Positions 5,927-26,673 are shown, counted from the stretch's first letter. The stretch: DNA of 28,571 nt from Candidatus Hermodarchaeota archaeon (GCA_048885525.1 JBHLLP010000045.1:1-28571), one strand, 5' to 3'. Made by a program: numbers and translations. The notes: a model not told the origin generated them from the letters alone.

Positions 5927-8900
5927 ATGACAAGCACTTTCGAAAGTTACAGTAAAATTGGTCAGATTTTTTCTGAAAATATTGATGATCTTGTATTTAT
6001 AGTTAATGATCATCATCAATGTGAGTATACTAATTTTGAAACTTTTACTGAAAAGAAAAAAATTAATGAATTTATTCATCCAAATGATTTTAAGCGAGTA
6101 AATAAACTTTTAAAAGATATCTTTAGGACTGATTATGGAATAGAAGAGGTTCAAATCAAATATAAAGATAAACCATTTAAATGGTTTGAAATAAAGGGAA
6201 ACGGTTTCATAGATAACGAAGATAATAAAAAAAAAGCTATTTTAATCGGTAGAGAAATAACAAAATTTAAAAATCTCGAGTTTGAAATAAAAAAGAGCCA
6301 AGCTCGTTTTGGTGAGCTAGCTGATTATGTACCGGAAATACAATTTTGGAAACTTCTTCAAACAAGAGAGGGTAAAAGTGTTGTACAGAAGACTAGAGAA
6401 ATGTTAGAAATAGTATTGGATAATATACCTCAACTTATCTATTGGAAAGATAAAAATTTAGTTTATATAGGGTGTAATAAGAATTTTGCGCTCTTAAATA
6501 AGATTAGTGAACCAACAAGTATTATCGGAAGCACTGATGAAGATCTAATTTGGCTGAAAGAAGATGTAAAATCGATAAAATACAAGGAAAATCAAGTAAT
6601 GAAAAATGATAGTGCTGAATATAATGCTATAGAATCATTATCTATTACTGATGATCAGCAAACATGGTTTGAAGTTAATAGGATTCCTTTACATAATCCA
6701 AAAGGTGAAGTAGTTGGTATTTTAGTAACCTATGAAGATATTACAATACGTAAAATAGCAGAAGAAAGATTAAAAGAATCCGAAGAGAAATATCGAGGGA
6801 TCCTTGATAATATTAAAGAAACTTATTTTGAAGTCGATTTAAAAGGAAATTTTACATTTTTCAATCACGCTCTTATTGAACTTATTGGATATTCAAAAAA
6901 TGAATTACTAGGTGCAAATTATCGTAATTTTGTTGACGAAGAAAATAAGAATAAAATTTTTAAAGTCTATAATGAAGTATATCGAACATCTATGCCAAAA
7001 TCTGATTTTCAATTTCAATTTCCGAAAAAAAATGGAGATTTAATAACATGTGAATCTTCAGTATATTTGATTTACGATTCTGAGGGCAATAAAATTGGCT
7101 TTAGCGGCTTAGCAAGAGATATTACAGAGAAATTCCTATTAGAACAAAAAATAAAAGACTCTGAGACAAAATATCGTCATCTCTTTGAAAATTCTCCATA
7201 TTCTATTTTGGTAATTGATAGAAAAGGATTCATAATTGATTGTAATCCAGTTACAGAGAAATTATTTAATAGAAAAATTGAAAGTTTAATAAATAAAAAT
7301 TTTTTAGATGTAAGTATCAAACCTGAAAAGACATTACCTTTATTTAAACAAAGATATCAATCTATTTTAAGTGGAATTGTCCCCGAACCACTTGAAGTTC
7401 AAATTACTAGATCAAAAAGTGCAGGGTTAATATGGATTAGTATTGATGATACTCTCGTAGAAATTGGGGGTGAGACATTCTTTCAAGTTATAATACAAGA
7501 TATTACAGAAAAAAAACTAGCTGAACAAGAATTAAAGAAATCACAAGAAGAATTACAAATATTAAATAGAGAATTAGAGCAAAAAGTTATAGAAAGGACT
7601 AAGGACCTAATAGAATCTGAACAACAATATCGTACGACAATCGATTCATTAAATGATCCTTTACATGTAATTGATAAAGAATTAAGAATTATGCTTTTAA
7701 ACAAGGAACTTAAAAAATGGCTTTATAATTTAAATATTGACTCAAATATCTTAGGTAGGAAACACCCTGAAGCGTTTCCCTTTTTACCGGATAAAGTTTA
7801 TGAAGAATATCGCGAAGTTTTCGAAACTGGGAAGTCATTAATTACGATCGAAACTACTCTATTACCAAATTTTGATGTTATTACTGAGACTCGAAAAATA
7901 CCAATATTTAGTGAAGGTAAAGTTAGTCAAATAATCACTATTATTAGAGATATCAGTGAACGTAAAAAAATGGAAGATCAATTGAAAGAATCTGAAAGGA
8001 ATTTTAGAAATATGATAACTAATTTAGATGAAGGATACTATAAAACAGATATTGACGGAAATATATTATATCATAATCCAGCATTCAATAATATCAGTGG
8101 ATTTGCACCTGATGAAAAATTAATAGGAAAAACAATTAAAAATTTATGGGAAAACCTTGAAGATAGTGAGAATTATATAGCTGAATTAATGAAAAATGGA
8201 TTTATTAGAAATTACATAGTACGTGTTAAAAAATTTAATAGAGATAAGATAATTATACAAATAAACGCTCATCTAATAAGAGATGAGAATGGTAACCCAA
8301 TAGCGATTGAAGGAACATTTAATGATATTACTGAGAAATTTAGATTGGAACAGGAATTAAAAGAATCTGAAAAGAAATTAAGACAACAGAATATCGAATT
8401 GAGAAAACTTGATGAAGTGAAAAACGATTTCATAACAATGGCCACTCATGAATTAAAAACACCATTAATTTCAATTTCAGGTTATACCGATTATATTTTG
8501 ATGAAATATAGAAATCAAATAAATGCTGAAATTACAACAGACTTGCTAACAGTACAGAGAAACGTAAATCGATTAGAAATGCTAATGGATCAGCTTTTAG
8601 ATGTTCTAAAAATTGACGAAAATGAATTAAAATTACAAAAGGAATCTGTTAATGTCAGTAAAATCATTAATGATTGTCTTGATGAATTAAGTTATTTGAT
8701 CAATGAAAAGAATCTTGAGATAATACTAAATATCAATCATGAAATTATATTAAATATTGATCAAGCACGGATTTTCACAGTTTTTACTAATTTGATTTTA
8801 AATGCAATTAAATTTACACCTGATTATGGGTGGATAAAAATATCTTCTAAAAAAAAAGATAATCATTATACTTTTGAAATTAAAGATAATGGAATTGGAT

Positions 8901-9109
8901 TAGCTCAAAATGAGATAAACCGATTATTTAAAAAATTTGAAAGAATAAAACCACCAATTATTAATGATCATCTTCATATTAAGGACTCTGGAACTGGATT
9001 AGGCCTTTATATTACTAAAGGGATTATATCAGCCCATGGAGGTAAAATTTGGGCAAGTTCGGAAGGAATAAATAAAGGTTCATCATTTTCTTTTACAATA
9101 CCAATATAA
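5927..9109 (+). CDS. Cytoplasmic multi-PAS sensor histidine kinase
   Basis: About six PAS/PAC units (ending EIT/DIT/DIS, linked by ESExxYR coils). H-box ATHELKTPL, N-box NLILNAIKFT, G1 DNGIG, G2 GTGLGL. No TM segment. Confidence 0.95.
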   Translation: MTSTFESYSKIGQIFSENIDDLVFIVNDHHQCEYTNFETFTEKKKINEFIHPNDFKRVNKLLKDIFRTDYGIEEVQIKYKDKPFKWFEIKGNGFIDNEDNKKKAILIGREITKFKNLEFEIKKSQARFGELADYVPEIQFWKLLQTREGKSVVQKTREMLEIVLDNIPQLIYWKDKNLVYIGCNKNFALLNKISEPTSIIGSTDEDLIWLKEDVKSIKYKENQVMKNDSAEYNAIESLSITDDQQTWFEVNRIPLHNPKGEVVGILVTYEDITIRKIAEERLKESEEKYRGILDNIKETYFEVDLKGNFTFFNHALIELIGYSKNELLGANYRNFVDEENKNKIFKVYNEVYRTSMPKSDFQFQFPKKNGDLITCESSVYLIYDSEGNKIGFSGLARDITEKFLLEQKIKDSETKYRHLFENSPYSILVIDRKGFIIDCNPVTEKLFNRKIESLINKNFLDVSIKPEKTLPLFKQRYQSILSGIVPEPLEVQITRSKSAGLIWISIDDTLVEIGGETFFQVIIQDITEKKLAEQELKKSQEELQILNRELEQKVIERTKDLIESEQQYRTTIDSLNDPLHVIDKELRIMLLNKELKKWLYNLNIDSNILGRKHPEAFPFLPDKVYEEYREVFETGKSLITIETTLLPNFDVITETRKIPIFSEGKVSQIITIIRDISERKKMEDQLKESERNFRNMITNLDEGYYKTDIDGNILYHNPAFNNISGFAPDEKLIGKTIKNLWENLEDSENYIAELMKNGFIRNYIVRVKKFNRDKIIIQINAHLIRDENGNPIAIEGTFNDITEKFRLEQELKESEKKLRQQNIELRKLDEVKNDFITMATHELKTPLISISGYTDYILMKYRNQINAEITTDLLTVQRNVNRLEMLMDQLLDVLKIDENELKLQKESVNVSKIINDCLDELSYLINEKNLEIILNINHEIILNIDQARIFTVFTNLILNAIKFTPDYGWIKISSKKKDNHYTFEIKDNGIGLAQNEINRLFKKFERIKPPIINDHLHIKDSGTGLGLYITKGIISAHGGKIWASSEGINKGSSFSFTIPI

Positions 9110-9300
9110 ATTTTATTTTATCTTCAAATTTTTAGGCTAAAACATTTTATTGATATCTTGAATTATATTACAGCAATTACAATTCTATATGCATTAATTT
9201 TTTTTTAATAATAACCAGAAATTTATTTAACTGTAATGATATATTATTATTCTTTCAGAAATTAACATTGAGTATTCCATTTAAAGTTTTAAAAATCAAA

Positions 9301-11430
9301 ATGACAACCCTAATAATCACAGAAAAAAATAAAGCCGCTGAAGCTATTGCTAATGCATTAGGATCAGTTAAAACAATAAAAAAAACAAAAACTTTAAATA
9401 TTTATGAAATTGCATCAAAAAAGGTTTATGTAATTCCTTTACGTGGGCATATCCTCGAATATAAAAATACAGATATTTATAAAAGTTGGACAAAAACAAA
9501 TCCCAGAGACATTATTACCAATCCAACCGCAATTCAAAAAGTACCTATAAGTTATGCTAATTCCTATATAAAATGTTTAAAAGAATATTCAAAGATTTCT
9601 GATCATTGTATTATTGGAACAGATGCAGATATTGAAGGTTGTAATATTGGCTTATTTGATGCTCTTCCATTTGTAAAACATGCAAATCCTAGTATAAAAG
9701 TTTCGCAGTTATGGCTCAGTTCTCTTCAAAAAAGTGAAATTATAAATAAATTTAATAACTTAATCTCCCCAAAATATAGTTGGGGAGAATCAGGAGAAGC
9801 AAGAGCAATTATTGATGCATTCATTGGGTTTTCAGCTACTCGAGAGGTTACAAATACTCTCCGTCCATTATTAAACAAATTCAGAGTAAGATTTACTTCA
9901 ATTGGTCGTGTACAGACTAGTCTTTTATATTTGATTTATCTTAGAGAAAAAGAAATTTTAAATTTTGTCCCAGAACCTTACTTTTTATTAGATGCGGATT
10001 TATTTCACCAAAATGGAATTTTTAGAGCTCATCATCAACTTAACCCCTTCAAGAAAGATGATGAGGTAAAAGTAAAACAGATTTTTCAAAAGATTAGAAA
10101 TGAAAAAGAAGGAAAAATCATAGATAATTCTAAGAACATAGTTAGAAGATCCCCTCCAAGTCCATTGAATACATCGAAAGCTTTAATTTTTTTGACAAAA
10201 AATTTAAGAATTTCTGCAAACATGGCCATGAGAACTATGAATGCATTATATTTAAACAAAATAATCTCTTACCCTAGAACTGATAGTGACGTTTACAAAT
10301 CAAATTTTGATCATACTGCTGTATTACAAAAATTTACTTCACATCCTAAGTTTAAAAACTATACTATAAACATTTTAGCTAATAAGAGAGTTAATCCAAC
10401 CAAAGGAAAAAAAGATATGGGTGATCATCCTCCCATTACACCTCTTGAAAGTTTAGATGTTAATGATACAAAATTCGAGAATAAATTGCAAAGTAAAGTT
10501 TATGAACTACTAACACGCCATTACCTTGCACTTTTTGGAGAAGATGCTCTTGAATCAAAGCAGTTCTTAAAAATTTTAATTAAAGATGAGCCATTTAATG
10601 CTCAACTTGTATCATTGATTTCACCTGGATTTTTAGAAATTGCACCATTTCTCAAACCAAAATACGATGAACAGATCCAAATAATTGGCGATAAAATTCC
10701 AATAAAGGAGATCTTATTCATCCAAAAAGAAACAAAACCCCCTCCTCGATATAATGATACGTCCTTGCTAAAATTGATGGAAAAAAATCATTTGGGTACA
10801 AAATCAACAAGACCAATCATTATAAAGTTATTACAAACTCGCTCTTTAACAAAGAGAATGAAATATCAGTATTTTATAACAGATTTAGGAAATTTTATTA
10901 TTGAAAATTTAATTGAAATATGGTTACCATTTTTACAACCCGATTTTACAAGAAAAGTGGAGGGAAAACTTGAAGAAATTAAAGATAATAAAAAGCAAAT
11001 GAAGGATATTGTAGACGAAATAAGAAATGAATTCTTACAATTATTTGATAGATTCCTTGTAAATAAGCATAAATTAATATCTAAAATTGATAATTATAAA
11101 TTAGATTTTACTATCCCACTTACTACATCAAATTGTCCTTTCTGTAATAAAATTCCCATGAAATTTATTAATATTAAAAATAAAAGATTTTTAGTTTGCT
11201 CTGATGAAAACTGCAAACAATACTTATCTTTACCTAAGAATGGAAAAATACAATTATTAGATTCCGTTTGTTCAATTTGTAATTTCAATATTTTTAGAAT
11301 TAATCTTAAAAAAAATAATAAAAATATCACTTATTATATATGTCCTAAATGTTGGAATGAAGATCGTTCCAGTTTTTGTTCTAATTGTAAGAATTACAAA
11401 ATTATAAAAGGACAATGCATACAAAAATAA
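9301..11430 (+). CDS. topA: Type IA DNA topoisomerase (archaeal TopA/Top3 type) with C-terminal zinc-binding region
   Basis: TOPRIM LIITEK, GHI, GTDADIEG, SIGRVQT, catalytic ISYPRTDS, DHPPITP, LGTKSTR, C-terminal Cys pairs. ATG at 9301 preferred over TTG at 9268. Confidence 0.93.
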   Translation: MTTLIITEKNKAAEAIANALGSVKTIKKTKTLNIYEIASKKVYVIPLRGHILEYKNTDIYKSWTKTNPRDIITNPTAIQKVPISYANSYIKCLKEYSKISDHCIIGTDADIEGCNIGLFDALPFVKHANPSIKVSQLWLSSLQKSEIINKFNNLISPKYSWGESGEARAIIDAFIGFSATREVTNTLRPLLNKFRVRFTSIGRVQTSLLYLIYLREKEILNFVPEPYFLLDADLFHQNGIFRAHHQLNPFKKDDEVKVKQIFQKIRNEKEGKIIDNSKNIVRRSPPSPLNTSKALIFLTKNLRISANMAMRTMNALYLNKIISYPRTDSDVYKSNFDHTAVLQKFTSHPKFKNYTINILANKRVNPTKGKKDMGDHPPITPLESLDVNDTKFENKLQSKVYELLTRHYLALFGEDALESKQFLKILIKDEPFNAQLVSLISPGFLEIAPFLKPKYDEQIQIIGDKIPIKEILFIQKETKPPPRYNDTSLLKLMEKNHLGTKSTRPIIIKLLQTRSLTKRMKYQYFITDLGNFIIENLIEIWLPFLQPDFTRKVEGKLEEIKDNKKQMKDIVDEIRNEFLQLFDRFLVNKHKLISKIDNYKLDFTIPLTTSNCPFCNKIPMKFINIKNKRFLVCSDENCKQYLSLPKNGKIQLLDSVCSICNFNIFRINLKKNNKNITYYICPKCWNEDRSSFCSNCKNYKIIKGQCIQK

Positions 11431-12969: not shown

Positions 12970-14091
12970 TTAGAGTAAATTAGGTGGAATACCTTCATTA
13001 AAATATTTGGCACGTGTAATCCAATTCTGGGAAAATTCGGGGATCATAGCGAGTATAGAACCGCCTACCCATACAGAAAACGTTCGTTCCATTGGAGCAA
13101 TAATTCTGATACCTAGATTTTTCCTCTTTCTCCTTGCTAATTCCAATTCTAATTCTTGATACATACGTGATTTCATATTGGGGAACATTGAGGAACCACC
13201 TGAAAGGAAAATATTATTTAGTAAATCTGGGCGAATATTTAAATCACATTCTTCAACTACATCCATAATGGCTATATGTAATGCATCTACTTCTAATTCT
13301 GAAGTAGGTCTGAATAGCAATTCAGGAATGATAAATCTTTCTTTATTAAGTGAGATTGTAGATCCATCAGGAAGTGAATATTCTTTTTCATACTGTTCAA
13401 CTCGTTTAAGATCTTCTTTATAATCTAAAGATACAAAACACGCTTTTTCTTTTAATACTCTTACTAGTTCCCTTCGGATAGAAGAATCAACTGACCAACC
13501 AATTGATTCTAAAGTTTGTTCCATATGGTGGGTTAGAACTCTTCCACCAATATCTAAAATTCTTACAGCATGTTCCAACTTGTATCCTTCATATATAGGG
13601 ACTATTCTGGTGTTACTGTCTCCAATCTCAACGATAAGACCTGTTTGAAAACCGCCTGAATATAAAGTTAGCATTGAATCTAATACGGGATAAAATGCCA
13701 TACACTGATAGTTTTCTAAAAATAACTCAAAAATTTTTTCTAAGTCTTTATATGGAAAAAGTGGATGCATAGCAAATAAGACATTAACAAGGGTAGAATC
13801 TACTCTAAGATTGTAAAAAATATAATCAATGATATTCTGAAAATGTGTCCAATCTACAATTATTCCTTTTTCAATAGGATGGAAGATCTTATATAGTCCA
13901 ATTGATTGAATCTCATCTCCGACATATATCTCGTCTTCACGAGATTTCTTAGATTCATAACTTAAATCTACATTTTGATATTTAGGTTTCCCAACCATCG
14001 TTAGGAAAACTTGAGACGGCGTATCTTCGCCCGCGAATCCAATTTTCGTACTGAACTGTCCAACATCGAGAACAACTGTTAGATTTCCCAT
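12970..14091 (-). CDS. Actin-related protein (divergent Asgard actin family)
   Basis: Colinear with actin over 373 aa: VVLDVG..TKIGFAGED, VGKPK, YVGDE, PIEKG, IVPIYEGY, LDIGGR.LT, KEKACFV, YSLPDG, ERF..PELLF, LSGGSSMFP, IIAPMERTFSVWVGGSILA, WITRAKY. Confidence 0.95.
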   Translation of the reverse strand: MGNLTVVLDVGQFSTKIGFAGEDTPSQVFLTMVGKPKYQNVDLSYESKKSREDEIYVGDEIQSIGLYKIFHPIEKGIIVDWTHFQNIIDYIFYNLRVDSTLVNVLFAMHPLFPYKDLEKIFELFLENYQCMAFYPVLDSMLTLYSGGFQTGLIVEIGDSNTRIVPIYEGYKLEHAVRILDIGGRVLTHHMEQTLESIGWSVDSSIRRELVRVLKEKACFVSLDYKEDLKRVEQYEKEYSLPDGSTISLNKERFIIPELLFRPTSELEVDALHIAIMDVVEECDLNIRPDLLNNIFLSGGSSMFPNMKSRMYQELELELARRKRKNLGIRIIAPMERTFSVWVGGSILAMIPEFSQNWITRAKYFNEGIPPNLL

Positions 14092-14181: not shown

Positions 14182-14928
14182 CTATCCTAATAGAATTTTT
14201 AATGGAGTATACGTTGTCTCAGGAATAAAACATTCTCCATATTCGGCATTAATTTCATTTCCCCGTAGAATTGCAGTATCCTCAGCCCAATCTAGAACAC
14301 GTTCCAGAACTTCTTTTTGGGATATATAAACTTGATTAAAAATTTTTTTTTTTTCTTCCCAATAATCTTCAATATTCACTGTTACAAATACCGAGCCCTC
14401 AATATATTCGAATTTACACGATGGCGATTCATAGTAATAAACACCCAACGGAGTCCAACTTCTCTTATGACCTCCATATGCTTTACCAGATGAACAGTGA
14501 TATATTGCTTCCCTGGTAATTAATGATAAATTCCGATGTACGCGGTGGAAATCTGAATAATGAGGGATTAGGATTACTTGAGGTTTATAATCCCTTATAA
14601 GATTCGTAATTTGTGAGATTTTAGCTCTTTCAATTTGCATATCGAAGTAATTTAATTGAATAAACTCACAATTTAATATTGATCTTATTGATTTTAATTC
14701 ACCTTCTCTTTGCTGTTGAATAATTTCTTTATCATCATCTCTGGCATATCCTCCTAAGCCCGAAGTAGCAATAACTATAACAATTTCTGCTCCAAATTTT
14801 TGATATTTTAGAATGGTACCTCCACATGACACTAATTCATCATCGGGATGCCCAGCAAAAATCAACATCCGCTTAGGGACAATAATGGGAATATCATCTT
14901 CACATAATAATAAATTTTGATCAGACAT
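14182..14928 (-). CDS. PIG-L/LmbE family N-acetyl-sugar deacetylase
   Basis: AGHPDDELVSCGG metal motif, ATSG, REGE, IRDYKPQVILIP..DFHRVH (HxDH variant), C-terminal YGECF. ATG at 14928 (MSDQNL) preferred; 14967 is possible. Confidence 0.88.
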   Translation of the reverse strand: MSDQNLLLCEDDIPIIVPKRMLIFAGHPDDELVSCGGTILKYQKFGAEIVIVIATSGLGGYARDDDKEIIQQQREGELKSIRSILNCEFIQLNYFDMQIERAKISQITNLIRDYKPQVILIPHYSDFHRVHRNLSLITREAIYHCSSGKAYGGHKRSWTPLGVYYYESPSCKFEYIEGSVFVTVNIEDYWEEKKKIFNQVYISQKEVLERVLDWAEDTAILRGNEINAEYGECFIPETTYTPLKILLG

Positions 14929-15067
14929 ATAAGATAACACTCTAATTAAAATTAAAAATATTATCATATTGTTTTAAATAAAAATAATAGAATTTCTATA
15001 ATTGAACTAAATAAATTGCTAGTTGTCTAAAAAGATATTTGATAAAAAAGAAAAATTAAGAAAGTTC

Positions 15068-19291: not shown

Positions 19292-20923
19292 CTATTCTAG
19301 TTTTTGTATTTTACTTAATCCAAAATGGATTATCAATAAAGCGAATCCTGATGTTAAAGCTAAATTAATAAAAAGTATAAACATTAAACCTGAAGAACTA
19401 TCAAAAGTATCAGATACAAACGGAACAAATACATAGAGTGCAATGAAAAACGAAATTATCTGCAAAAAAATGACAAAATAACTGATCAAATATGCATGTT
19501 TACCTCTTTCCTCGAATAAAGGATTAAAGCACTGCACTCCAATTGCTTGTAATTGAATTACAAAGCAATATAACATAAAGCCAAAAAAGAAGATTAATGA
19601 ATAAATTAATTCTAATTGGAACAGTAATGTGAAAAAGATTGTTAAAACAAAATCTAAAATTAACACTAAGTAAAAAATTTCATAAATATAAGAATATACA
19701 AGTGCTTTTACTCCTCTTGGCGTACTTTTATACTGAAATACCAATTGTTTTGAATCAATGAAAATATGTAAACCCATTAAAACACCAAATAACAACCCTC
19801 CAACCCATGATACGATTATTACTATTAAGAGTTTAATGTTTAGAATATCATAACCAGCTATAGCTGGATTTTCAAGAGAATATATTATTATTACACCAAT
19901 AACTGAAATTAACACCCATATATATATTACTTTGAAAAGATTTTCCTTTTTCCTAAAAAATTGTTTAAATTGTGTAATTATTAACCCTCTCCAGTGATAA
20001 GGAGTCACTTTCCTAATAATTTTATAGAACCTTCCCTCACTTTTACTAATAAAGACTTCATTTTCAGAACGTCCTTCTAAAGTGTAAAAGGAGGCTGCTT
20101 TTTTATATGAAAGATAGAGGAGAAAAGAAGGGATTATAATACCTAAAGAAATATTTGTTATGACAAATACGTAACTCGATAAAGCATTGAAAAAGTTTAG
20201 TAGTGGATCAATCCCAAACAAGATAATATTTGAATACCAAAAAGAAGGGTAAAGCATTAACCAAATTTTATATTCGGGAGTAGATAAAATAATATCAAAA
20301 AAGAAACGCAAAATGTAAAACAACGCTATTACTATAATTGATAAAAAAAGTAAGAAAGTTTTTCCTAAATCTTTTGCTATTGCACTTTTTGTCATTCTAT
20401 GCTCAAGGAGATTGGCTATAATCATTCCAATTAAGAAACTGAAAGCTAACAACATAAATAAACTTGAATAAATCACGATATATTGAAAAATATTTAAAGT
20501 CCGTATTTGATTCAATAAACTAATAACAACGGGCCCCAATCCTAAAATAACTAAAACATAAAAGATTAACTTGCCTAGAAATTCTCCAAGAAAAATATCC
20601 CCGGGTTTAATGGGAGAGGATAGTAATATTTCACTATGTCCGATTTCTGCCTTTCTATAGAGGTTATAAAGAGGATATATCAGAATAATTAAAAAAAAAG
20701 CTGTTAAAAAATATTCTATGAATTTTACTGAGATTGAAACATATTCACTTGGTATGTCTTGGGCAACAATAGATAGTATAATATCGAATAGATTCGGACC
20801 TAAATAAAAACCCCAATACAAAAAAATTGCATAAATTACAATCAAAAATGATTTCCGGTTTTTTCGATACCTATATGTCTTTAGGCGAATTTCATGTTTA
20901 ATGATTGTTTTCCATAAACTCAT
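19292..20923 (-). CDS. Multi-pass membrane protein, putative ABC-2-type permease (two fused halves)
   Basis: About 12-14 TM segments. Each half begins with an IIKHE/IITQFK-type helix and carries a coupling-helix-like motif (LLSSPIKPGDIFLGE; YKSTPRG). Confidence 0.65.
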   Translation of the reverse strand: MSLWKTIIKHEIRLKTYRYRKNRKSFLIVIYAIFLYWGFYLGPNLFDIILSIVAQDIPSEYVSISVKFIEYFLTAFFLIILIYPLYNLYRKAEIGHSEILLSSPIKPGDIFLGEFLGKLIFYVLVILGLGPVVISLLNQIRTLNIFQYIVIYSSLFMLLAFSFLIGMIIANLLEHRMTKSAIAKDLGKTFLLFLSIIVIALFYILRFFFDIILSTPEYKIWLMLYPSFWYSNIILFGIDPLLNFFNALSSYVFVITNISLGIIIPSFLLYLSYKKAASFYTLEGRSENEVFISKSEGRFYKIIRKVTPYHWRGLIITQFKQFFRKKENLFKVIYIWVLISVIGVIIIYSLENPAIAGYDILNIKLLIVIIVSWVGGLLFGVLMGLHIFIDSKQLVFQYKSTPRGVKALVYSYIYEIFYLVLILDFVLTIFFTLLFQLELIYSLIFFFGFMLYCFVIQLQAIGVQCFNPLFEERGKHAYLISYFVIFLQIISFFIALYVFVPFVSDTFDSSSGLMFILFINLALTSGFALLIIHFGLSKIQKLE

Positions 20924-20950: not shown

Positions 20951-22336
20951 TTATTTCTCTCTATACAAATTTATAGCTTTTTTTTTAAATTTATCAATAT
21001 GATCTCTTGAATAATTAAGAATTATTATAGATATGGAAATCAAAGTTATTATTGTAAAAATAAATAGTATTGTAAATTCATAACCCCAACCGGTATTTGA
21101 AGTGAAATATATCTCTTTTATTACCTGTCCTGAACCCCCTTCAACTTTAACTTTTAAAATATATTTACCATTAAGTTGAATATCTAAATCCTTTTCCCAT
21201 AAGGGTCCATTTGAATTGATATTTGTTAAAGGTTCCCAATTCGTAATTTGAAATTCCTTTTTATTACTATGAAGAGAATATTCAACTGAGTTTATCCCAT
21301 GAGGATCCCATGCTAATATCCTTATTTTATTTATGTTTTGAATTAAAGCAGATTCACTTGAAGGGTACGTAATAATTGCTTGCGGCCAACTCCCAACAGT
21401 TTCTATTGATGTTGAGAGTTGATTATGATCCAAGGCAATAATCCTGTATGTGCCACCATTTAGGTTAAAATTACTTGTAGTTATTGCGAGGAAATTATTT
21501 TCGTTTTGAAAAGAATCAACGTGTACATGTCCAGATAAATAATAATTAACATTAAATTCAGTATTTAAATCTGAGAATGTCTTACCACTAGAGCTTAAAT
21601 CCGAAGCAATTGTAAAAGTGGGAGGATATTTATGAGGATGGTGTCCAAATACAAAAATTTTGTCGAAATTTCTATAATGGTATAATTCCTTTTCATACCA
21701 GTCTAACTCTGTTGTATTTAAAAAACCTAAAAAAGCGAACTCTATTAAATTATATGAACTTTTAGCAGTGTTAAGTCCAATGAATGCATAATTTCCAAAT
21801 GAAAATGTTTTATTGAAAGAGTACTGCAGAGTGTTGAATGTGCTCCCAATCATTGAATAGTTAAGATAGTAGCTAAAATCAAAATCATTTGATGCATCAT
21901 GATTACCAATAAGATCTATATAGATAGAAGAATTCATATTATTGTCTTCTAAAGCTTTTCTATAAAGGCTCCACTCATCAATATCTTGGAGAGCACCATT
22001 ATTAGCATCTACTAAATCTCCAGTATTATATATAAAGAGAGGATTGATTTGATGAAATGTTTCGTTTAGTAATTGATAAAAGTTAGCTATACTTTCGTTT
22101 GCAGACCACACAAATTGAGTATCTGTGATCTGGATAAACCAGAATATTTTGTGTTCATTATTGTCTATATAGCCTAGGTTAGACGATTTGATTTTGTTAG
22201 AATCTGGATTGTAAGTGTTTTTCGAGATAAATTGAGTATTTAAAAAAATAGAAGAAGATGTGTTCAAACACAAATTTATGCAGATATTAAATAAAGTGAA
22301 TATGATTAAGATTTTCTTATATTTTCTATTAATCAT
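20951..22336 (-). CDS. Extracellular membrane-anchored calcineurin-like metallophosphoesterase (TMEM62-like)
   Basis: N-terminal hydrophobic signal. Motifs ITDTQ, TGDLVD, GNHD, FGHH, SGHVH. Followed by an Ig-like domain and a C-terminal TM. Confidence 0.88.
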   Translation of the reverse strand: MINRKYKKILIIFTLFNICINLCLNTSSSIFLNTQFISKNTYNPDSNKIKSSNLGYIDNNEHKIFWFIQITDTQFVWSANESIANFYQLLNETFHQINPLFIYNTGDLVDANNGALQDIDEWSLYRKALEDNNMNSSIYIDLIGNHDASNDFDFSYYLNYSMIGSTFNTLQYSFNKTFSFGNYAFIGLNTAKSSYNLIEFAFLGFLNTTELDWYEKELYHYRNFDKIFVFGHHPHKYPPTFTIASDLSSSGKTFSDLNTEFNVNYYLSGHVHVDSFQNENNFLAITTSNFNLNGGTYRIIALDHNQLSTSIETVGSWPQAIITYPSSESALIQNINKIRILAWDPHGINSVEYSLHSNKKEFQITNWEPLTNINSNGPLWEKDLDIQLNGKYILKVKVEGGSGQVIKEIYFTSNTGWGYEFTILFIFTIITLISISIIILNYSRDHIDKFKKKAINLYREK

Positions 22337-22735: not shown

Positions 22736-23290
22736 ATGGAGCTTCAAGATTCTAAAGGAAAAATTATTAAAGAAACCTTCCCATCAGAACTTGTTTCTAT
22801 TATTGGCGATATCTTAGCAGGAATAATCCTTTCCCTTTTAATTATACATTTCGCAAGTTTCCTTGTTTTGATATTAATGGTCCCAGCTCTTTTGTCTTTA
22901 AGAGGTAATTTAAGTGGTCCATTCATAGCTAGAACCTCTAGAGATTTAGTTATTGGAGTATTTTCTAAGAGATCATGGTTTGAAAATGTTCTTGCTACAT
23001 ATTCACTATCTATTGTCACAGCATTTTTTATTGGCATCTTCTCTCTTATTTTAAATTTATTTTTCTTTAAATTAACAATACTCCCTAATCAGTATTTTAT
23101 GCTCATTCCAATTATTTCAATTATTTTAACATTATCTATTTCAATTCCGTGTTCTACTGGTTTAAATTACTTAGCTTTTAAAAGAGGTTTAAATCCAAAT
23201 AATATTGTAAATCCCGTGATGACTGCTATTGATGATTTTTCTACCGTATTTTGCTTTTTCTTAACCATAATAATGCTGGGGGTGCCTTAA
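22736..23290 (+). CDS. MgtE/SLC41-type divalent cation transporter, membrane domain half 1
   Basis: MVPALLSLRGNLSG and GLNPNNIVNPVMTAIDD motifs, five TMs. Confidence 0.85.
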   Translation: MELQDSKGKIIKETFPSELVSIIGDILAGIILSLLIIHFASFLVLILMVPALLSLRGNLSGPFIARTSRDLVIGVFSKRSWFENVLATYSLSIVTAFFIGIFSLILNLFFFKLTILPNQYFMLIPIISIILTLSISIPCSTGLNYLAFKRGLNPNNIVNPVMTAIDDFSTVFCFFLTIIMLGVP

Positions 23291-23302
23291 ATTAAGTACT
23301 AC

Positions 23303-23842
23303 ATGAAAATTTTTAAAGAATCCATAATCATTGTGATTTTATCTTCATTATTTGGGCTTATTTCTGGTACTTTATTATCTTCGAGTGAAGCACTATTAAC
23401 AACTATACCAATATTACTTTTAATAATTCCCGCTTTAAATTCTTTAATAGGTGATATGTCAACTGTTCTTGTATCACGATTAACCACACACCTATATATT
23501 GGAACATTATCCCCAAAAATTCAGAAATCAGATCGATTAAAAGAAGATTTTTTGGGATTACTCATAACCCTTTTATTGAGTTTAATAGCTTTGTTATTGA
23601 TAGGATATTTTGTTGCTATTATATTAGGTATTGAGATAGTAAATCCTTTTTTGATCATTTTTATTATCTCTATTACAGCTTTATTGATTTTTATAATAAT
23701 GTTTGTATCGTTGTTTGTTAGCGCGATCTTCTTATATAAGCATGGTAAGGATCCTAATAATTTTCTAATTCCATTTCTTACGTCTTTGGCTGATTTTCTG
23801 ACGCCTTTATTCCTAATTATTTTTATAATAAATTTTATATAA
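23303..23842 (+). CDS. MgtE/SLC41-type divalent cation transporter, membrane domain half 2
   Basis: IIPALNSLIGD..SRLTTHLYIG and GKDPNNFLIPFLTSLAD motifs, five TMs. Confidence 0.85.
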   Translation: MKIFKESIIIVILSSLFGLISGTLLSSSEALLTTIPILLLIIPALNSLIGDMSTVLVSRLTTHLYIGTLSPKIQKSDRLKEDFLGLLITLLLSLIALLLIGYFVAIILGIEIVNPFLIIFIISITALLIFIIMFVSLFVSAIFLYKHGKDPNNFLIPFLTSLADFLTPLFLIIFIINFI

Positions 23843-23861
23843 AAACAAATTTATATCAAAC

Positions 23862-25130
23862 GTGAGTGAAAAAAACTATATGACTAAGCAGAGTAAAAAA
23901 TTTAAATATAAGCCACTTTCCCTAAAAGATATCATCAGAGAAATGAAACAAAACATTGATTTAATGATAGACTTGGCTTATAGTGCAATTAAATTCGGAA
24001 GTAAAGAACTTGCAGATGAAGCATATAAGATGGAACAACGCATTCATGAACTTACATTTTTGCTTAATTTCCAAATTATTCAAGCACATCCAAGAGGATT
24101 GGATGGAGCGAAAAAATTAGAACCTATCGTTGTTATGGGATATGCTATTGATAAAATTTCCGATGCTTTATCAGATATTGCTAGAGTAGTATATGTTAAC
24201 AGTGATATCTCTTACTTTTCTCAATTATTTAGTGATCTTAGTTATGTACCCGAACCTATAGTCAAAATTGATGTTAATGAAGGATGCGAGTTTATTGGTA
24301 AAGTAAGGAAAGAAATACACTTTAGATCTAAGCATGGAATTGACTTAATCGCAATTCGGAGAGAAGGCAAATGGCTATTTGAAAGAGATCAAATAGTGCT
24401 AAAAGGTGATATTTTAATTGTTAAAGGAGAAATTCAACCCATTATAGAATTGAAAAAATTATGCAATGATAAAGAACCCTTTTCTTTTGATATTGGTGAA
24501 GAGGAAAAGGAAGAAATTCTTGACCTTGAAAAACCTGAAATTTGTGAAAAAGTTGAAGAAATCCAAAGAAATTATGTTTCAATAACTGATATTTCAGAAA
24601 CAATGATAGAATTAGCTTTAGCAGCATTGTTCTTTAGAAATGAAGAGCTTTCTGAAGATGTTTTAGAAATGGAGGAATTAATGGATGGTTTAAATATAGC
24701 TCTTGAAAAAGATCTCCTTGATTTAGCAAAATTGGTTGAATCTCCTCGAGATCTCACAGGAATAATGAGGATTGTTTTTAGTTGTGAATTAATAGCTGAT
24801 GCAGCTGCTCATATTGCAGAGAATATTCTTAAAGGCTTTGAACCACACGGAATTCTCCAGCAAGCTATAAAAGAAACTCAGGAAATAGTAGTAAGAGAAA
24901 CATTATCTGAAGATTCATACTTTAAAGACAAAACTTATCATGAATTACAAGATAAACGCTATAAACGAGGCTTTCATATTATAGCTTTAAAAAGAGAAAA
25001 TAAATGGATATATAAATTTAAACCAGATTTTGTGTTTGAAGAGGGAGATCTCCTAATTGGATTAGGGCCATTAGAAACTGTTATGCAATGGCGTAGGTGT
25101 GTGAATCCAGAAAAATATAAAGACGAATAA
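23862..25130 (+). CDS. Duplicated PhoU + TrkA-C (RCK_C) regulatory protein (COG3273-like, two units)
   Basis: LMIDLAYSA...DKISDA followed by GIDLIAIRR..GDILIVKG, then TMIELALAA...ELIADAA followed by GFHIIALKR..GDLLIGLG. The start could also be the ATG at 23880. Confidence 0.85.
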   Translation: MSEKNYMTKQSKKFKYKPLSLKDIIREMKQNIDLMIDLAYSAIKFGSKELADEAYKMEQRIHELTFLLNFQIIQAHPRGLDGAKKLEPIVVMGYAIDKISDALSDIARVVYVNSDISYFSQLFSDLSYVPEPIVKIDVNEGCEFIGKVRKEIHFRSKHGIDLIAIRREGKWLFERDQIVLKGDILIVKGEIQPIIELKKLCNDKEPFSFDIGEEEKEEILDLEKPEICEKVEEIQRNYVSITDISETMIELALAALFFRNEELSEDVLEMEELMDGLNIALEKDLLDLAKLVESPRDLTGIMRIVFSCELIADAAAHIAENILKGFEPHGILQQAIKETQEIVVRETLSEDSYFKDKTYHELQDKRYKRGFHIIALKRENKWIYKFKPDFVFEEGDLLIGLGPLETVMQWRRCVNPEKYKDE

Positions 25131-25768: not shown

Positions 25769-26164
25769 ATGCACGAATATATAGAAGTGAAGTACATCTC
25801 TGAGAAGAAAGGTAGAGGAGCATTTGCTAAGAAGCCAATTAAGAAAGGAACCGTAGTTGAAGTTGCACATGTAGTTCCTATTCCTAACAAAGATTATAAG
25901 AAAATCTATAAAACCATATTGTACAATTATTGTTATATTTGGGAAGATCCAGAGCACATGCCTGCATTTAGAAATGCAATAACTCTTAGCATAAGTCAAT
26001 TTATTAATCATTCGTTTGAACCAAATGTTAAATATCTTTATGATTATGAAAATAAGGCAATTGAGTTTTCTGCTATAAGAGATATTTCAAAAGGAGAAGA
26101 AATTTTAGTAAATTATAATGGACTTGTTGATGATAAAAGTCCAATGTGGTTTGAAGTGGAATAA
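25769..26164 (+). CDS. SET-domain protein methyltransferase (copy 1)
   Basis: KGRGAFA, FINHSFEPN, RDISKGEEILVNY. Confidence 0.92.
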   Translation: MHEYIEVKYISEKKGRGAFAKKPIKKGTVVEVAHVVPIPNKDYKKIYKTILYNYCYIWEDPEHMPAFRNAITLSISQFINHSFEPNVKYLYDYENKAIEFSAIRDISKGEEILVNYNGLVDDKSPMWFEVE

Positions 26165-26268: not shown

Positions 26269-26673
26269 GTGTATTCCACGAATAATCTATTAGAAGTTAA
26301 ATTCATATCAAAAAAAAAAGGAAGAGGAGTTTTTGCTAAAAAAAATTTAGTAAAAGGAGAAATCATAGACATTGCTTATGTCATCCTTATTTCTAATCGT
26401 GATTGGGATTTAATCGCAGATACAGTTATATCTAATTATTCATTTGAGTGGGATGATCCTAAATATAAAGGAGAATATGAATCTGCAATCTCCTTAGGTA
26501 TTAGTCAATTTATAAATCACTCTTATAAACCTAATGTTAAGTATCGTTATAGTCATAAAGATAAATCAATTGAATATATTACAATTCGAGATATTTCTAA
26601 AGGAGAAGAAATTACCGTAAATTATAATGGAAGAACTTCAGATAAATCTCCTGTATGGTTTGAAGTCGAATAA
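26269..26673 (+). CDS. SET-domain protein methyltransferase (copy 2)
   Basis: KGRGVFA, FINHSYKPN, RDISKGEEITVNY. GTG start. Confidence 0.9.
   Translation: MYSTNNLLEVKFISKKKGRGVFAKKNLVKGEIIDIAYVILISNRDWDLIADTVISNYSFEWDDPKYKGEYESAISLGISQFINHSYKPNVKYRYSHKDKSIEYITIRDISKGEEITVNYNGRTSDKSPVWFEVE

Follow-up and report, generated by a model that had tools for sequence, protein, structure and literature searches.

A 461-residue open reading frame (ORF) on the minus strand of a 28,571-nucleotide stretch of Candidatus Hermodarchaeota DNA (GCA_048885525.1, JBHLLP010000045.1:1-28571; hereafter the window) encodes a metallophosphoesterase of the TMEM62 superfamily (positions 20951–22336, stop codon included). 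We conclude from sequence, profile and AlphaFold2 (AF2) model comparisons that it is a true member of this superfamily, which is defined by a Metallophos and an Ig_TMM62 domain. Phylogenetic analysis of sequences places it in an Asgard-only clade, A, paralogous to a second Asgard clade, B, and it is clade B, not A, that is sister to eukaryotic TMEM62. The sublineage of the query has secondarily lost the multi-pass membrane tail found in its relatives. We consider it likely that the product is an active, membrane-anchored, outward-facing binuclear phosphoesterase, a clade A paralogue without the tail, for which we infer both activity and topology.

The first-pass annotation of the gene had proposed a kinship with TMEM62 that went beyond generic phosphoesterase motifs, citing a series of short segments. 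All of them are present in the ORF, namely IFWFIQITD (residues 64–72), TGDLVDA (105–111), EWSLY (121–125), FGNYAF (180–185), YRIIALDHNQLS (297–308), WPQAIITYP (317–325) and IRILAW (338–343). TMEM62 of the fish Esox (P0262) carries near-identical strings in the same order (VFWFLQVSD, TGDLTDA, EWQAY, FGNYSF, YRVLAFDHDLLS, WPAVLITNP and IRILAF) and aligns with residues 10–399 of the query at 25% identity (99 bits, BLASTP E = 2e-26). When 5.8 billion proteins were searched by word index, 108 Asgard relatives were retrieved at 30–72% identity, those named coming from "Promethearchaeota", Thor- or Hodarchaeota metagenome-assembled genomes (MAGs). The next hits were TMEM62 proteins of eukaryotes; these carry PF24384 (Ig_TMM62), with PF24394 (TMEM62_C) in addition in one of them, and have phmmer E-values of 9e-18 to 1e-15. 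Profile–profile comparison of clade A with eukaryotic TMEM62 gave 100% (E = 2.5e-44) for the catalytic region and, using hhalign, 97.5% (E = 7e-12) for the Ig-like region, while reversed-column controls for the two comparisons gave 0.2–2% (Ig control, 0.2%). The AF2 model is confident (predicted local distance difference test score, pLDDT, 91.5; predicted template-modelling score, pTM, 0.83; 136-row alignment). It matched a chordate TMEM62 cluster of the ESM Atlas with a template-modelling score (TM-score) of 0.66 over 342 residues and a streptophyte cluster with a TM-score of 0.62, the Atlas matches covering residues 58–417 of the query. The similarity is well above chance level, and the proposed homology therefore holds, since phmmer, BLASTP, profile and Atlas comparisons agree that the Ig_TMM62 domain is shared as well.

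The domain order supports the same assignment. A metallophosphoesterase catalytic domain (residues 56–300, positions 21437–22171; Pfam PF00149, E = 1.9e-12) is followed by an Ig-like β-sandwich homologous to Pfam Ig_TMM62 (residues 304–415, positions 21092–21427; AF2 strands at 306–413 and hhalign) and by a single C-terminal transmembrane (TM) helix (residues 417–440, positions 21017–21088; hydropathy and AF2). As the annotation had stated, phosphoesterase, Ig-like and TM segments come in the same order as in TMEM62, and only one C-terminal TM helix is present. Eukaryotic TMEM62, to which plant At3g03305 belongs, combines PF00149 Metallophos, PF24384 Ig_TMM62 and PF24394 TMEM62_C, and the membrane anchor is placed after the Ig domain in both. 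The eukaryotic proteins differ in having D-[LI]-H in metal motif I where the query has D-T-Q, in their identity to the query of about 25%, and in forming a separate clan; their multi-pass TMEM62_C tail is reduced in the query to its first TM helix.

Single-sequence searches with the 461-residue protein are less telling. Pfam reported only generic Metallophos (48.5 bits against a cut-off of 21.5, residues 66–273), and the protein alone stays below the Ig_TMM62 threshold, which its long-form clade A relative P0085 passes (30.8 bits against 27). A sequence search of the PDB with the same protein matched nothing meaningful. Identity as CpdA or another class III cyclic-nucleotide phosphodiesterase was not supported, NCBIfam equivalog scores being far below threshold (PRK11148, CpdA, 20.9 bits against 225; SpdA, 22 against 400).

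Large numbers of relatives also occur in bacteria. At least 687 bacterial clusters carry the Metallophos + Ig_TMM62 module at E ≤ 1e-10, and the bacterial clan (D) includes Geomonas agri together with Desulfobacterales, Syntrophaceae, Deltaproteobacteria and Bacteroidales MAGs. Their architecture is a signal followed by Metallophos and Ig_TMM62, then FN3, Big, VCBS or PKD domains. The Geomonas agri protein P0299, labelled "fibronectin type III domain-containing protein", aligns with the query at 29% identity (146 bits, E = 1e-42) and shows equivalents of the cited segments (WFIHASD, TGDLTDS, EWDQY, WPVVLITAP and VRALVF). Because the query scores higher against this protein than against fish TMEM62 (146 versus 99 bits), we regard the segments, which the annotation had taken as specific to the TMEM62 family, as common to a large bacterial clade with the same module. 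Domain profiles of clade A agree, being closer to D than to eukaryotic clan C both for the catalytic domain (E = 6e-59 versus 2.5e-44) and for the Ig domain (E = 7e-19 versus 7e-12). The top ESM Atlas match is likewise a bacterial Metallophos + Ig_TMM62 cluster (TM-score 0.70, root-mean-square deviation 2.6 Å, 347 residues). Clan D thus supplies the best-scoring non-Asgard relatives, which are exported, as the query is predicted to be; they differ from it in keeping D-x-H in motif I, in typically having GHTH in motif V and in lacking a TM tail.

To place the query, we collected 593 representatives at E ≤ 1e-3 by scanning 1.84 billion representatives exhaustively with HMMER and built trees on the catalytic + Ig region with FastTree (133 rows) and IQ-TREE (LG+C20+F+G4, 82 rows). 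Five clans were recovered. Clan A (support 99) is Asgard, includes the query and has D-x-Q in motif I. Clan B (support 100), also Asgard, has D-x-H, GNHE in motif III and a tail of 4–5 TM helices; among its members are P0142, from a Promethearchaeota MAG with prokaryote-like context, P0136 and P0172. Clan B2 (support 100) is a small Asgard clan, clan C (support 99) is eukaryotic TMEM62 with D-[LI]-H and a multi-TM tail, sampled from Capsaspora, Thecamoeba, Dissophora, Ciona, fish, spider, mollusc and Selaginella, and clan D (support 97) comprises the large group of secreted bacterial proteins without a TM tail. The B2 proteins P0196 and P0216, the latter from a Promethearchaeota MAG, are long-branched and tail-bearing, 620–750 residues long with D-x-H.

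Clans B and C were recovered as sisters with a Shimodaira–Hasegawa (SH)-like support of 99 in FastTree and an SH-approximate likelihood ratio test (SH-aLRT) value of 97 in IQ-TREE, while A, B2 and D branch from the unresolved centre of the tree. A constraint uniting A with C was rejected by the approximately unbiased (AU) test (ΔlnL 30.3, p-AU 0.0002), run under LG+G4 on 40 rows with groups named after the tree had been inspected. Search statistics point the same way: clade B proteins match eukaryotic TMEM62 at E-values of 1e-43 to 1e-37, whereas the query reaches only 1e-15 to 1e-18, and the Ig domain of clade B matches the eukaryotic one at E = 3e-36 in profile comparison. Rooting with three metallophosphoesterases from the same genome put the root in the unresolved centre, one of these outgroups behaving as a long-branch artefact. 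Clade B shares with the query the Metallophos + Ig core and comes from the same phylum and class; it differs in keeping D-x-H, in the GNHE of motif III and in reaching the Pfam Ig_TMM62 threshold. The annotation's view of the gene as the archaeal counterpart of eukaryotic TMEM62 is disfavoured, clade B being the Asgard lineage nearer to eukaryotes. One of the findings that it had itself named as able to overturn it was TMEM62-like proteins widespread in bacteria with this gene nested among them; such proteins are indeed widespread, and the nesting was not observed.

We sampled 400 genomes of the phylum for the family and found it in 32, all of them in the class of the window and none outside it. 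Clade B occurred in four of the 400, all in the order of the window and each also with a clade A copy, so that within this sample it is confined to one Lokiarchaeia-type order. In the source genome (99% complete) the clade A gene is the sole family member, with no clade B copy. The clade B loci are L003/L024 (G134:C157), L004/L020 (G166:C119), L005 (G144:C742) and L006 (G133:C124), with frames of 624–636 residues.

The tail adds a further line of evidence. Among 150 listed representatives a multi-TM tail was found in Asgard archaea and eukaryotes only, and in none of the bacteria listed. The B and eukaryotic tails align by hhalign at 97.6% (E = 3e-12, 218 columns, score 85, controls ≤ 40), and by this comparison are clearly homologous. 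Those of clade A long forms and clade B align at 92.3% (E = 5e-7, score 50, controls ≤ 38) and are probably homologous too. Long-form A tails against eukaryotic ones gave 7.7% (E = 0.0045, score 25.5, controls at most 21.9), which is insignificant, although a conserved Pro and a terminal [SNG]P motif fall in the same register. Pfam TMEM62_C matched none of the clade A and B tails as single sequences, and an ESM Atlas feature search with the clade A tail returned nothing usable.

Within clade A, long forms carry 4–5 TM helices, and the query carries one followed by 21 residues. The helix at residues 417–440 corresponds to the first TM helix of the tail in long-form relatives, whose tails start at the same alignment column. 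Short forms make up a single clade (support 99) nested in the long forms and sister to P0085 + P0086 (support 98), and the truncation in the query lineage is therefore secondary. We conclude from these alignments and trees that the query sublineage lost its 4–5-TM tail.

These results bear on whether the gene itself stands for an orthologue-like archaeal ancestor of eukaryotic TMEM62, which would make it a eukaryotic signature protein (ESP), as the annotation had suggested by calling it a candidate. In keeping with that idea, eukaryotic TMEM62 is the first group to follow the Asgard proteins among the word-index hits, the Metallophos, Ig and TM order is common to both, and the long-form clade A tail, of a kind seen in no bacterium among the listed representatives, is probably homologous to that of clade B. 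We nevertheless think it quite unlikely, given that clade B is the sister of eukaryotes with A + C rejected by the AU test, that pairwise and profile scores put the query nearer to bacterial clade D than to eukaryotes, and that the A tail shows no significant similarity to the eukaryotic tail and is missing from the query altogether. An ESP would be confined to Asgard archaea and eukaryotes, or be far closer to eukaryotes than to any bacterial protein, and the query is neither. Judged by sequence, the query core is equally bacterial-like, and it is the tail-bearing architecture and clade B that carry the ESP-like signal; the candidate label is better suited to clade B and to the three-domain architecture than to this gene.

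We then considered what the protein may do. The catalytic domain contains the motifs D72-T-Q74, G106-D107, G144-N145-H146-D147, H232 and G269-H270-x-H272. Four of the five metal motifs are intact (GDLVD, GNHD, H232 and GHVH), and in motif I (positions 22115–22123) the canonical D-x-H is replaced by D-T-Q, a His-to-Gln change that the annotation had noted correctly. Across 92 clade A proteins no variation is seen at D72, D107, N145, H146, H232 and H270, and H272 is conserved in 91. Position 74 is Gln in 84 of the 92 (all 32 long forms and 52 of 60 short forms) and His in the remaining 8, whereas its equivalent is His in all 44 sampled proteins of B, B2, C and D. Since this position varies only between Gln and His beside otherwise fixed ligands, the active site is probably a functional binuclear centre in which the metal-1 site is modified. 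From the sequence pattern, the side-chain oxygen of Gln74 probably remains a ligand of metal 1, and the residue may tune metal preference.

The best solved folds in a Foldseek search were purple acid phosphatase (PAP; 1war, 5uq6), Rv0805 (2hyp) and GpdQ (3d03), at E-values of about 1e-11. These mono- and diesterases share the motif framework (TM-score by target 0.58–0.72 to the catalytic domain) but differ from the query in sequence (14–20% identity) and lack both an Ig_TMM62 domain and a membrane anchor. In PAPs the motif I His is absent and a Tyr is provided from motif II.

The pseudoenzyme alternative starts from the same substitution: D-x-Q would disable metal site 1, leaving a catalytically dead or metal-altered phosphoesterase that works at the surface in binding or adhesion, through its Ig-like domain. 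A canonical ligand is indeed replaced across clade A, bacterial relatives are fused to the adhesion-type domains FN3, Big, VCBS and PKD, and the gene is accessory and patchy. Yet the seven other catalytic-motif positions are invariant or nearly so in 92 sequences, a degree of conservation not expected if a dead site were under relaxed selection, position 74 alternates only between two residues that can both bind metal, and 8 members have gone back to His without other changes. We regard a dead enzyme as very unlikely.

The predicted topology places the catalytic domain outside the cell. After a basic start (MINRKYKK), a hydrophobic helix at residues 2–28 (positions 22253–22333; hydropathy and AF2 helix) is predicted to act as a Sec-type signal peptide or, alternatively, as an N-terminal anchor, and it leads into a linker (residues ~27–51) that is disordered in the AF2 model, with low pLDDT. 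At the other end, a short basic tail of 21 residues (441–461, positions 20954–21016) ends in ...RDHIDKFKKKAINLYREK; being rich in Lys and Arg, it is predicted to be cytoplasmic by the positive-inside rule. Seven N-x-S/T sequons lie in or beside the part predicted to be exported. Taken together, the sequons, the C-terminal TM helix with its K/R-rich tail and the hydrophobic helix behind a basic N-terminus suggest that the catalytic domain faces outward.

In the mechanism that we propose for an active, anchored phosphoesterase, the N-terminal signal or anchor helix would export a binuclear-metal catalytic domain of the PAP, GpdQ and Rv0805 structural type, which would pack on the Ig_TMM62-type β-sandwich. 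The C-terminal TM helix and the short basic cytoplasmic tail would then retain the protein at the cell surface, where it might hydrolyse phosphate mono- or diesters in an extracellular or membrane-surface substrate. Candidate substrates include nucleotides, glycerophosphodiesters, lipid head groups and polyphosphate.

Several points weigh against this reading. Our literature search yielded no biochemical function for TMEM62, and papers on the superfamily, which report no measured activity or substrate, are expression or association studies only; the listing of At3g03305 in a plant polyphosphate review was set aside as functional evidence, as it is a generic "calcineurin-like" entry. Gln at a metal-ligand position could weaken or abolish catalysis, and the predicted orientation has only the positive-inside rule behind it. 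Being patchy, the gene is also accessory: of 53 genomes in its genus, 13 have the family, and several of those that lack it are 97–100% complete, so that it serves no core function. Finally, its pairing with a downstream neighbour is limited to a lineage with general local synteny and so may not reflect function.

This neighbour is a 543-residue polytopic membrane protein gene (positions 19292–20923, minus strand) that begins 27 nt downstream of the phosphoesterase stop on the same strand, and the two are probably co-transcribed. Pfam assigns no family to its product, whose ESM features point to similarity with 12TM_1 and ABC-2-type permeases (0.96–0.98), which we treat as a lead only. By tblastn it lies directly downstream in L013, L014, L011, L015 and L009, and it was present after every short-form gene sampled. 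It was not found by tblastn within ±8 kb of any sampled long-form or clade B locus, and no other conserved neighbours were found across those loci. In close relatives the 543-residue protein is the better conserved of the pair (80–83% versus 68–71% identity).

Such a pattern raises the possibility of a two-gene unit, in which the neighbour substitutes for the lost tail, for instance by supplying the ecto-enzyme with a substrate that is transported or lies in the membrane. The gap of only 27 nt, the retention of the pair at 47–50% phosphoesterase identity (L015, L009), the absence of the neighbour from all sampled long-form and clade B loci and the resemblance to 12-TM permeases are what one would expect of such a unit. 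They have to be set against the MgtE and PhoU flanks, which are syntenic in the same loci, so that shared regional ancestry may explain the pairing, against a short-ish form (L025) that has no neighbour, and against the scan of window ORFs, in which no ABC ATPase was found. Nor is the neighbour homologous to the tail: the possibility that it is a detached TMEM62 tail was ruled out by hhalign (0.3%). We therefore put the two-gene unit forward tentatively, as a doubtful but conceivable arrangement.

The rest of the window, which is AT-rich (~25–37% G+C), contains several recognizable genes. Upstream of the phosphoesterase and divergent from it (22736–25130, plus strand) are two adjacent MgtE-type half-size membrane proteins of 184 and 179 residues (PF01769 each) and a 422-residue protein with PhoU and TrkA-C domains, which together suggest a divalent-cation transporter in split form plus its regulator and are syntenic only in close relatives. 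Farther on (25769–26164 and 26269–26673, plus strand) lie tandem paralogous small proteins; the first, of 131 residues, matches Pfam SET (E = 4e-19), and the second, of 134 residues, matches the same single ORF as the first in L013 and L015 (58% and 49% identity). On the minus strand an actin-family gene (12970–14091; Pfam Actin, E = 1e-87) adjoins a PIG-L family deacetylase gene (14182–14967), the former in keeping with an Asgard source. A 1060-residue multi-PAS histidine kinase (5927–9109) and a type IA topoisomerase with Toprim and Topoisom_bac domains (9268–11430) are encoded on the plus strand.

In the literature searched, we found nothing linking TMEM62 with Asgard archaea. One preprint of October 2026 (10.64898/2026.10.28.762692) lists an unnamed "metallophosphoesterase", conceivably TMEM62, among new structural clusters exclusive to Asgard archaea and eukaryotes. 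For eukaryogenesis, our result is a correction, and it advises caution against over-counting ESPs from motif-level resemblance; the ESP question is better addressed in the four genomes that carry clade B. Animals, fungi, amoebae and plants all conserve TMEM62, and its prokaryotic relatives, being small and intron-free with natural variants in the tail and in the Gln/His metal site, could make the enzyme testable. A broader scenario, which we consider unlikely as a whole, is that the three-domain TMEM62 architecture arose in Asgard archaea and reached the eukaryotic ancestor through clade B, with clade A as a sister paralogue in which the motif I His became Gln and the tail was swapped for a separate 12-TM partner. 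If this were true, the two genes would offer a prokaryotic model, split and genetically tractable, for the way in which TMEM62 couples a lumenal or extracellular phosphoesterase to a membrane module.

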